4,882 bases of DNA. Origin: a virus (Duplodnaviria > Heunggongvirae > Uroviricota > Caudoviricetes). The first letter of the stretch is position 1; each line of letters begins with the position of its first letter. Location of the stretch: IMG/VR virus record IMGVR_UViG_2617270978_000018, one strand, 5' to 3'. This document shows positions 1,554 to 1,672 of the stretch, piece by piece. Under the pieces are notes generated by a model. That model searched no databases, was not told the DNA's origin, and was given only the letters and a program-made list of their open reading frames with translations. The position numbers and the translations under genes are program-made.

Positions 1554-1566
1554 AGATTTCTCCCAT

Positions 1567-1599
1567 AAAAAAAGCCCGCAGCAGTGACGCCACGGGCTT
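1567..1599 (-). terminator. Rho-independent terminator downstream of lom (minus strand), just upstream of the stf RBS
   Basis: Minus strand AAGCCCGTGGCG-TCAC-TGCTGCGGGCTT followed by a run of 7 T (plus strand A7 at 1567..1573). This gives a GC-rich stem of about 10-12 bp including G-U pairs, a tetraloop and a U-tract. Confidence 0.65.
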
Positions 1600-1663
1600 C
1601 AGGACAGTGTAACTTTACGTTTCCTCAAACGCAGTTCATCACATGAGGCGGATGAACCTGCGA

Positions 1664-1672
1664 ATTATAACA
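1664..1672 (-). promoter_or_regulatory. Candidate extended -10 promoter element (TGTTATAAT) in the lom-stf spacer, minus strand
   Basis: The minus strand reads TGTTATAAT, an exact match to the extended -10 consensus TGnTATAAT. I found no convincing -35 hexamer. It is sequence-only evidence in an AT-rich spacer and could be chance. Confidence 0.25.

Follow-up and report, generated by a model that had tools for sequence, protein, structure and literature searches.

A conserved, unannotated element in the lom-stf spacer of lambdoid prophages: the lom terminator and, possibly, a small RNA that shares it

Introduction

What occupies the 150 bp between lom, the gene of an Ail/Lom outer-membrane protein, and stf, the side tail fibre gene, in the tail module of a lambdoid prophage: a plain terminator, or an RNA gene of its own? 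The question was raised by a stretch of 4,882 nucleotides (nt) of viral DNA (Caudoviricetes; IMG/VR record IMGVR_UViG_2617270978_000018), called here the window, in which all genes lie on the minus strand and the lom-stf spacer spans positions 1554-1703. A sequence-only reading of this spacer had pointed to an extended -10 box, an inverted repeat and a terminator hairpin, and had proposed that they form a unit making a small RNA (sRNA) of roughly 90-100 nt, or else that the repeat is a protein-binding operator and the hairpin simply the lom terminator. Prophage sRNAs (AgvB, AsxR, StxS, HnrS, PasA-D) are emerging as links between mobile virulence genes and core regulatory networks, and the element studied here has lom, a host-interaction gene, on one side, and cargo such as nleA or eibA lies downstream of it. 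Comparison of its copies indicates that the spacer as a whole is a real, selected and unannotated element. The reading that we favour, with somewhat less than even confidence, is a promoter-to-terminator unit that would make an RNA of about 91 nt sharing the terminator of lom.

Results

Signals on the sense strand of the spacer

The features of the spacer, in window positions and in the order in which they would be transcribed, are the following.

1673..1693, minus strand: AT-rich conserved block upstream of the -10, CGATTTATCTTCTGCAAACAT, with 2 variable columns out of about 21 across lineages and no recognisable -35
1664..1672, minus strand: extended -10 promoter-like nonamer TGTTATAAT (hexamer 1669..1664), an exact match, unique in the window
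1656..1658, minus strand: predicted transcription start, about 7 nt past the -10 at the foot of the 5' hairpin, placed by promoter geometry only
1634..1657, minus strand: 5' stem-loop 1 (SL1), GUUCAUC-N10-GAUGAAC, extendable to 1630-1661 with one bulged G
1616..1633, minus strand: possible second stem-loop (SL2), UGCGUUU-GAGG-AAACGUA, weak, in the minimum free energy (MFE) fold of lineages B1 and B2
1601..1615, minus strand: invariant unpaired stretch AAGUUACACUGUCCU, candidate seed or Hfq-contact region, unpaired in the B1 and B2 MFE folds
1567..1600, minus strand: intrinsic terminator, GAAGCCCGUGGCG-UCAC-UGCUGCGGGCUUU followed by U7, with 13 pairs, 7 of them G-C, and a loop of 4 (terminator scan)
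1551..1566, minus strand: stf ribosome-binding site (RBS), GGGAG at 1564..1560, and start codon 1553..1551, directly 3' of the T-run

The extended -10 match claimed by the sequence-only reading was recovered exactly, at 1672..1664. The nonamer has the TGn, the TATAAT-like hexamer, the A2 and the T6 of an extended -10 sigma-70 promoter, and is the sole match to TGNTATAAT in the window; 0.05 such matches are expected per window, and one was present in 10 of 200 shuffles. It was missed by a two-hexamer promoter scan because no -35 hexamer lies upstream of it. The perfect 7-bp inverted repeat GTTCATC-N10-GATGAAC was likewise found by reading the sequence and by a repeat scan, with arms at 1634-1640 and 1651-1657 of the minus strand, and so was the GC-rich hairpin with its 7-T tract (stem 1600..1571, T7 at 1573..1567).

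Since three of its pairs are G-U, this hairpin folds well on the minus strand only. It is G+C-rich, is followed by at least five U, lies downstream of a gene on the same strand, 104 nt past the lom stop, and its position is conserved, all of which are properties of an intrinsic terminator. The T-run ends 13 nt before the stf ATG, so that the stf Shine-Dalgarno sequence comes right after it. Read as an RNA, the spacer has the layout of an sRNA, a 3' terminator hairpin and poly-U tail preceded by a conserved single-stranded region.

Conservation of the spacer between mosaic neighbours

Sequences upstream of stf were sorted from 80 viral contigs gathered via the Stf N-terminus, and are of three types. 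Type A is the 64-bp spacer of lambda, Rac and Sakai Sp15, type B the spacer of about 150 bp seen in the window, and type C, without lom, consists of 200-480 non-coding nt after J. Type B is present in 1650 of 5426 complete Escherichia coli genomes (about 30%), with nothing annotated beneath the matches; its copies in E. coli number about 1970. Its carriers include enterohaemorrhagic E. coli (EHEC) with Sp9/CP-933P (Sakai Sp9, NC_002695.2 1798916-1799066, plus strand; EDL933, NZ_CP008957.1 2297466-2297616, minus strand), PP6 of enteropathogenic E. coli (EPEC) E2348/69 (NC_011601.1 1470637-1470787, plus strand), CFT073, strains of sequence type 131 (ST131), HUSEC2011, the Eib prophage P-EibA (99.5%) and E. 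albertii, this last being the sole addition from a contig scan with the Stf N-terminus that otherwise returned mostly phage lambda sequence in unrelated assemblies. The Lom alleles next to type B spacers are 44-90% identical and the Stf N-termini 61-100% identical, and some loci whose Stf N-terminus is 100% identical to that of the window carry type C instead. Judged from these combinations, the element travels independently of its neighbouring genes.

Variation within type B was drawn from 256 further copies and from copies fetched via Stf and BLAST. The lineages are B1, that of the window (about 5% of copies), B2 (about 85%), B3 (about 8%) and B4 (2 copies). ECOR-9/P-EibA and JE86-ST05 are of the B1 type, with a perfect TATAAT, and Sakai and CFT073 of the B2 type. 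Compared with B2 in segments of 30 nt, identity is 57-80% in the 3' half of lom and 77% for the first nt past the stop, rises to 87% over the -10 and dyad and to 100% from SL2 through the terminator, and drops to 77% at the RBS and 60-77% in the 5' end of stf; compared with B3, lom is 27-70% and the core 90-97% identical. Such an island of identity with dips on both flanks argues for selection on the element itself and not for a recombination block spilling over from a neighbour. Among 1654 records from complete genomes, 1584 match the window with 99% identity or more over the 3' 60 nt (1633..1574); over the 5' 60 nt (1693..1634) only 12 do so, and 1613 are 80-90% identical. The unpaired stretch AAGUUACACUGUCCU falls inside the near-identical 60-nt block.

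The -10 box also changes in a restricted manner. Its TG, A2 and T6 are retained in B1, B2, B3 and in a decayed copy, H81 (L346, E. coli AHB30, NZ_OZ547086.1 4087151-4087284), and its versions across lineages (TGTTATAAT, TGTTATGAT, TGGTATAAT and TGCTATAAT) show two sites of change, the free n, which is T, G or C, and hexamer position 4, which is A or G. These are the two least constrained positions of the box and the only ones to vary, and the 7 nt right after it vary freely among lineages. In H81, where the stf ATG has become ATT and the neighbours are pseudogenes, about 6 substitutions have accumulated in the core, AAGUUACACUGUCCU being mutated, and a perfect TGCTATAAT is still present. This copy, a single example and the sole one inspected with a drifted core, argues that the block is not a mutational cold spot. 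A poorly conserved spacer in which only the terminator is retained, the outcome that would have spoken against the sequence-only reading, is therefore not what the copies show: the critical -10 positions (in B1, B2, B3 and H81), the dyad and the unpaired stretch are all kept. We take this conservation as real evidence that the arrangement is not due to chance. One contig (variant v37) departs from the other copies immediately past ...CACTGTCCTGAA, just before the terminator; the divergent sequence, presumably the end of an IS3-family (IS629-like) element, would split the candidate RNA from its terminator.

A terminator abutting stf in three types of spacer

Types A, B and C each end in a different hairpin and T-run, 10-14 nt from the stf ATG, and in its terminator half the spacer is ordinary, such terminators being general among lambdoid tail modules. 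The view that the hairpin is simply the lom terminator was right as far as termination goes, in a generic sense that holds for three of three spacer types; the rest of the spacer is not ordinary. The hairpin is best read as a terminator of the lom moron or of the late operon, which would insulate stf until Q-modified polymerase reads through it.

The lambda-type spacer aligns with the 3' 55 nt or so of type B only (ACAnTGT..TGA.AGCCCG, hairpin, T-run, RBS), and promoter and 5' hairpin would therefore be an added module. From this alignment, type B looks like a lambda-type terminator module with a 5' addition of about 95 nt that carries the extended -10 and the dyad. The short spacer (for instance L011 3486-3549, L008 4988-5051 and L105 887-950) is identical in 25 loci, whose Lom proteins are 42-76% identical to that of the window. 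Its TGTTATGAC directly abuts the terminator stem and so it could not give an sRNA. A perfect palindrome, TAACAC-A-GTGTTA, stands directly before its terminator. The lambda record has nothing annotated at the 64-bp spacer, and K-12 datasets are not applicable here, Rac carrying the short spacer.

Type C has an sRNA-like layout too (L025-L032 and L036-L059, about 200 nt upstream of stf, locus positions ~1300-1500): a G+C-rich hairpin, a C/A-rich unpaired stretch, for instance AACACCAACAAACCACAAAT, and, abutting the stf RBS, a terminator made of CCGCAGGCCGGGAAACCGGTACTGCGG and a T7 run. The stretch AACACCAACAAACCACAAAT resembles the CACAACA motif bound by GcvB, and the J-stf spacer of type C could hold another unannotated RNA or an sRNA sponge.

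Predicted RNA structure

Each of the four lineages that were folded gave SL1. In the dyad, the 5' arm is fixed and the 3' arm varies (GATGAAC, GGTGAAC, GGTGAGC, AGTGAAC). The stems of SL1 and the terminator show one-sided changes: two of U-A to U-G, one of C-G to U-G, and one of G-U to A-U, the last at the loop-closing pair of the B3 terminator, which is preserved; these four changes keep the pairing on the sense-strand RNA only. The 92-nt fold has z-scores of -3.3 to -4.6 in four lineages. The RNAalifold covariation term is -0.4 kcal/mol. With regard to covariation across homologous prophages, another check on the sequence-only reading, the dyad is kept and covariation is absent. The predicted RNA structure is compatible with these data.

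Comparison with catalogued RNAs and interactome data

Rfam, searched with the whole window and with the spacer alone in two variants, gave no match at the gathering threshold. The best match was rli42, at 21.6 bits for a threshold of 80, and all matches were generic look-alikes made of a hairpin plus terminator. AgvB (RF02702), AsxR (RF02703), Esr41 (RF02676), STnc100 (RF02076), IsrG and IS009 all scored below their gathering thresholds. The spacer is absent from Rfam, from RefSeq annotation and from the published prophage sRNA sets (PasA-D, EcOnc, HnrS, AgvB/AsxR, 24B_1), and a full-text literature search for the core sequence gave no match. Identity with single known RNAs was rejected as well. 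PasB/EcOnc22 lies in the I-J gap in antisense and shows neither similarity nor complementarity to the spacer (coordinate versions differ by about 140 nt between paper and current record); EcOnc47 is found by dinI or on its opposite strand, and the tail region of Sp9 contains no mapped EcOnc; HnrS, which is EcOnc10-12, is located elsewhere, HnrS, AgvB and AsxR all lying in the Q/lysis region; and 24B_1 comes from a different lom-proximal spacer and from the other strand.

In EHEC RNase E-CLASH (cross-linking, ligation and sequencing of hybrids), one chimera joins the 3' end of MicF to AUGGGGUGAACUGCGU of the spacer on the sense strand; the CLASH authors labelled the spacer part as ECs1808 5' untranslated region (5'UTR). 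The EHEC Hfq-CRAC (cross-linking and analysis of cDNA) catalogue, in which the EcOnc RNAs are listed, admitted a site only if it was antisense to a coding region or lay more than 100 bp away from any, a rule under which a 150-bp spacer could never qualify. Within the invariant stretch, GUAAAGUUA (1607-1615, minus strand) can form 9 pairs, one of them G-U, with UAACUUUAU near the MicF 5' end. This match, seen by eye, is weak, A/U-rich and expected by chance across many sRNAs; the sole CLASH chimera at the spacer involves the 3' half of MicF and not its 5' region.

Genes of the window

The genes on either side of the spacer were identified by Pfam, and the remaining features of the window are as follows.

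2371-4878, minus strand: J, with several J domains (Pfam)
2333-2352, minus strand: second intrinsic terminator, GGGCGCCAGAAATGGTGCCT followed by T6, in the J-lom gap (2304-2370), 24 nt before the lom ATG
1704-2303, minus strand: lom, Ail/Lom outer-membrane protein (stop 1704-1706), Pfam PF06316 Ail_Lom, E = 1.7e-126
411-1553, minus strand: stf, side tail fibre (ATG 1553-1551), Pfam prophage tail fibre N-terminal domain and collagen repeats
1-437: partial insertion sequence IS1 (junction 437/438), with InsA at 107-382 on the minus strand and terminal repeat GGTGATGCTGCCAACTTACTGATTTAG at 437..411, minus strand

The J-lom terminator is followed by an RBS in the same layout as that found before stf, and leaves no space for a lom promoter downstream of it. 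IS1 removes the 3' part of stf and leaves the lom-stf element itself undamaged; since it lies inside stf, the tail fibre gene is truncated and the prophage probably defective. Long open reading frames (ORFs) opposite or alongside stf (424-1450, plus strand; 746-1207, minus strand; 278, 287, 153 and 146 amino acids) are artefacts of the collagen-like Gly-X-Y repeat composition of stf and not genes.

Discussion

We propose that the spacer would be a sense-strand RNA element in two layers. The first layer, the 3' 55-60 nt or so, comprises a short unpaired stretch, the 13-pair hairpin and U7, abutting the stf Shine-Dalgarno sequence, and is homologous to the entire 64-bp lom-stf spacer of lambda, Rac and Sp15. 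It would end the transcription of the lysogen-expressed lom moron and insulate stf in the lysogen, and late in the lytic cycle RNA polymerase modified by Q would pass through it and transcribe stf. Read-through of terminators under Q is established lambda biology, from which we infer this step here. The lom gene is among the few lambda genes expressed in lysogens, from a repressed prophage (PMC7067206).

The second layer, a 5' addition of about 95 nt restricted to the type B spacer, would supply a -35-independent extended -10 promoter just past the lom stop, together with the 5' hairpin. The product would be a terminated non-coding RNA of about 91 nt, from 1657 to 1567 of the window on the minus strand, made of a 5' stem-loop, a weak or alternative middle fold, the invariant unpaired stretch of about 15 nt and the terminator with its U-tail. 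A start near 1657, about 7 nt past the -10, would place the dyad at the very 5' end of this RNA. In sequenced genomes the RNA would run from about 1798962 to about 1799052 in Sakai (plus strand), from about 2297570 to about 2297480 in EDL933 (minus strand) and from about 1470683 to about 1470773 in E2348/69 (plus strand). The layout would be that of an Hfq-type base-pairing sRNA sharing its 3' end with the upstream mRNA, as do 3'UTR sRNAs with their own promoter, and from it we infer promoter activity, an RNA, its binding to Hfq and a function in trans. A more specific proposal, which we hold to be on the unlikely side, is an undescribed family of prophage regulatory RNAs: an RNA-only moron, born by the addition of a promoter and 5' hairpin before the lom terminator. 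About 30% of E. coli strains would, as lysogens, produce such an RNA, whose 15-nt stretch would let it act on mRNAs of the host or the prophage, or serve as a sponge for a core sRNA. The strains concerned would include EHEC with Sp9/CP-933P next to nleA, EPEC with PP6, uropathogenic E. coli CFT073, ST131 and strains with Eib-encoding prophages.

Several observations weigh against a ~91-nt RNA made from its own promoter. The strongest constraint is on the 3' 60 nt and not on the -10 or the dyad, and the -10 is destroyed in the rare B4 (2 of 256 copies), the rest of the element being kept. The lambda-type spacer is equally invariant without such a promoter, and lom termination or stf translation may therefore account for part of the conservation. 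Of dinucleotide-shuffled spacers, about 5-6% contain a perfect 7-bp dyad with a loop of 3-12 nt, so that the dyad alone is marginal against chance. SL2 has a C-A mismatch in all B3 and B4 variants (5 of 15), and RNAalifold favours a different fold. The low folding energy of the 92 nt is due to the terminator, the 5' 61 nt having no exceptional stability by themselves (z = -1.2). A pair is disrupted in two or three minor variants; the 4 compatible changes against these 2-3 disruptive ones are not significant, because about half of random stem transitions are wobble-compatible anyway. Compensatory double changes are absent, none of 24 pairs being changed on both sides, and shuffles gave the observed values, there being too little variation for a covariation signal.

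Expression and target searches point in the same direction. The EPEC E2348/69 spacer is absent from the complete RIL-seq (a method that ligates and sequences interacting RNAs) hub (S5) and new-sRNA (S6) tables; no fragment at 14706xx-14707xx and no lom or stf tag occur among the chimeras listed. This strain carries the B2 variant (TATGAT), and shows almost no expression of lom (baseMean about 2) or stf (about 7). In EHEC, the spacer is represented in CLASH by a single read. For the seed AAGUUACACUGUCCU no complementary site was found in the window and, in the start regions of 20 neighbouring prophage genes (among them lom, stf, tfa, nleA, nleH, nleF, espO, nleG, espM1 and eib), nothing beyond background. 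In a whole-molecule duplex test, complementarity of the predicted RNA to PasB and MicF was not above shuffled controls. The accessible EPEC and EHEC expression data do not show a discrete RNA. Of the sRNA-like unit of 90-100 nt first suggested, the features and their conservation are upheld; SL2, broken in one lineage, covariation and a discrete RNA in accessible data are not. The earlier screens were blind or insensitive here, given the 100-bp filter of Hfq-CRAC and the scant transcription of the region by EPEC in the two conditions used.

The main competitor, which we regard as possible though somewhat doubtful, is that the spacer is only the lom 3'UTR, a moron or late-operon terminator and the initiation context of stf, the -10 and dyad being incidental or serving lom mRNA stability, with no independent transcript; conservation would then come from selection for efficient termination and for a lysogen in which stf is insulated, as well as for translation of stf after Q read-through. 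A hairpin and T-run stand 10-14 nt before the stf ATG in three of three unrelated spacer types, a terminator followed by an RBS also precedes lom (2352..2333), and lom is expressed in lysogens (PMC7067206). The 64-bp lambda-type spacer is just as invariant between Lom alleles 42-76% identical, constraint in the long spacer is highest over the segment homologous to the short one, the EPEC tables hold no sRNA here, and the CLASH read was labelled ECs1808 5'UTR by its authors, all as this explanation would have it. However, structure is what a terminator requires, and neither its loop nor an unpaired stretch of 15 nt would have to be invariant; the extra 95 nt are 80-90% conserved when the adjacent coding DNA is 57-80%, and the -10 substitutions spare exactly the promoter-critical positions. 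Regulated read-through of the terminator, making the whole a promoter, leader and attenuator through which stf, tfa and cargo further downstream would be controlled in the lysogen, would suit the order promoter-like box, hairpins, terminator, RBS and stf, and amino-acid operon leaders and a PyrR site are among the weak Rfam look-alikes. We consider it quite improbable: every Rfam score is far under its gathering threshold, no antiterminator pairing with the 5' arm of the terminator appears in MFE, centroid or alifold structures, and there is no conserved leader peptide, the short ORFs of the sense strand differing between lineages.

Conserved inter-module sequences are a long-standing idea for lambdoid mosaicism, and the mosaicism here is striking, one spacer occurring with very different lom and stf alleles. 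An element acting as DNA, either a protein-binding operator at the dyad or a recombination linker for the swapping of lom and tail-fibre modules among lambdoid phages, is nevertheless improbable in our view. The identity island dips on both sides in two independent comparisons, unlike what a recombination block reaching in from one neighbour would give. The operator proposed by the sequence-only reading is weakened by half-sites that are not symmetrically conserved, the 5' arm being fixed and the 3' arm variable; the arms change asymmetrically, so that the DNA palindrome is broken and the RNA wobble pairs are kept. The core also decays with its prophage in H81, which fits a prophage-tied function, although a linker would lose its purpose there too. 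Small ORFs on either strand of the spacer are not conserved as proteins, and we give very little credence to a small protein encoded on the plus strand. The ORF in question, of about 26-29 codons (MNLRIIT...), runs from the dyad loop or arm (about 1643/1652 onward) in antisense into the 3' end of lom, and its frame is open in translations of B1, B2 and B3. Against it, only 3 of 12 lineage differences are synonymous and most change an amino acid, the Shine-Dalgarno spacing is 0-3 nt, the scan gave no plus-strand promoter or terminator, and the peptide is not hydrophobic, unlike a type I toxin.

If the ~91-nt RNA proves true, it would be among the most widespread prophage-encoded sRNAs in E. coli and a clear example of sRNA birth, in which a promoter was added before an existing terminator. 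If it is not real, an architectural rule remains, a terminator abutting the stf RBS in all three lambdoid tail-module types examined, together with a 60-nt block that is essentially invariant across about 1600 genomes.

Among known systems, the 64-bp lom-stf (orf-401) spacer of lambda, Rac and Sp15 has a homologous 3' part and is like type B in position, in its terminator-then-RBS layout and in extreme conservation, but lacks the 5' addition of about 95 nt with its consensus extended -10 and dyad. The 24B_1 RNA of the Shiga toxin (Stx) phage Phi24B, which gave no match to the spacer in phage BLAST, has likewise been described, in a lambdoid Stx phage, as encoded between lom and the gene that follows it; unlike the candidate, it comes from a 428-bp spacer without intrinsic terminator, from the opposite strand, and is a processed product of 20 nt (PMC4426718). 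PasB / EcOnc22-24 is a tail-module sRNA of EPEC and EHEC prophages (PMC8550237, PMC4104026, bioRxiv 10.64898/2026.05.13.724894). Like the candidate, PasB occupies an intergenic gap of the same lambdoid tail module, is short (about 83-85 nt), ends in an intrinsic terminator and is widespread beyond EPEC and EHEC; it differs in being antisense to the tail genes, unrelated in sequence and validated by Northern blot, Hfq-dependent stability and RIL-seq, whereas the candidate is on the sense strand and predicted. A 96% identical copy of PasB lies about 4.3 kb upstream of the element in E. coli JE86-ST05, the window's nearest relative among complete genomes, where it occupies the I-J gap, and the tail module thus already hosts one validated Hfq-dependent sRNA. 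This copy is at 1636-1717, antisense, of the JE86-ST05 locus (L001), another being at 2762-2844 of L006; in this prophage type the gap lies just outside the window. EcOnc22/23/24 (about 85 nt, Hfq-dependent) appear at the PasB position upstream of J in Sp15, Sp14 and Sp11, and are probably one family with PasB.

Two more general classes frame the candidate. A phage moron is an insertion into a late operon and consists of a promoter, a gene and an intrinsic terminator (Juhala et al. 2000, Cumby et al. 2012, cited in PMC7067206). The candidate would resemble one as an autonomous promoter-to-terminator unit between late structural genes, active in the lysogen, and the lom terminator is a classical moron terminator; however, the candidate has no ORF, and would be RNA-only, reusing the terminator of the neighbouring protein moron. 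The other class is that of the 3'UTR sRNAs with their own promoter, such as DapZ and MicL, which share the terminator of the upstream mRNA. They have, like the candidate, a promoter at or after the gene end, the intrinsic terminator of that gene, a conserved unpaired stretch, a U-tail and a length of about 90 nt. The candidate differs from them in that its promoter would lie past the stop codon and not in the coding sequence, that it belongs to a prophage and stands beside a late structural gene, and that it is known from sequence. If real, it would belong with the prophage-encoded sRNAs, or with the sRNAs that share an upstream mRNA terminator, and not to a new category.

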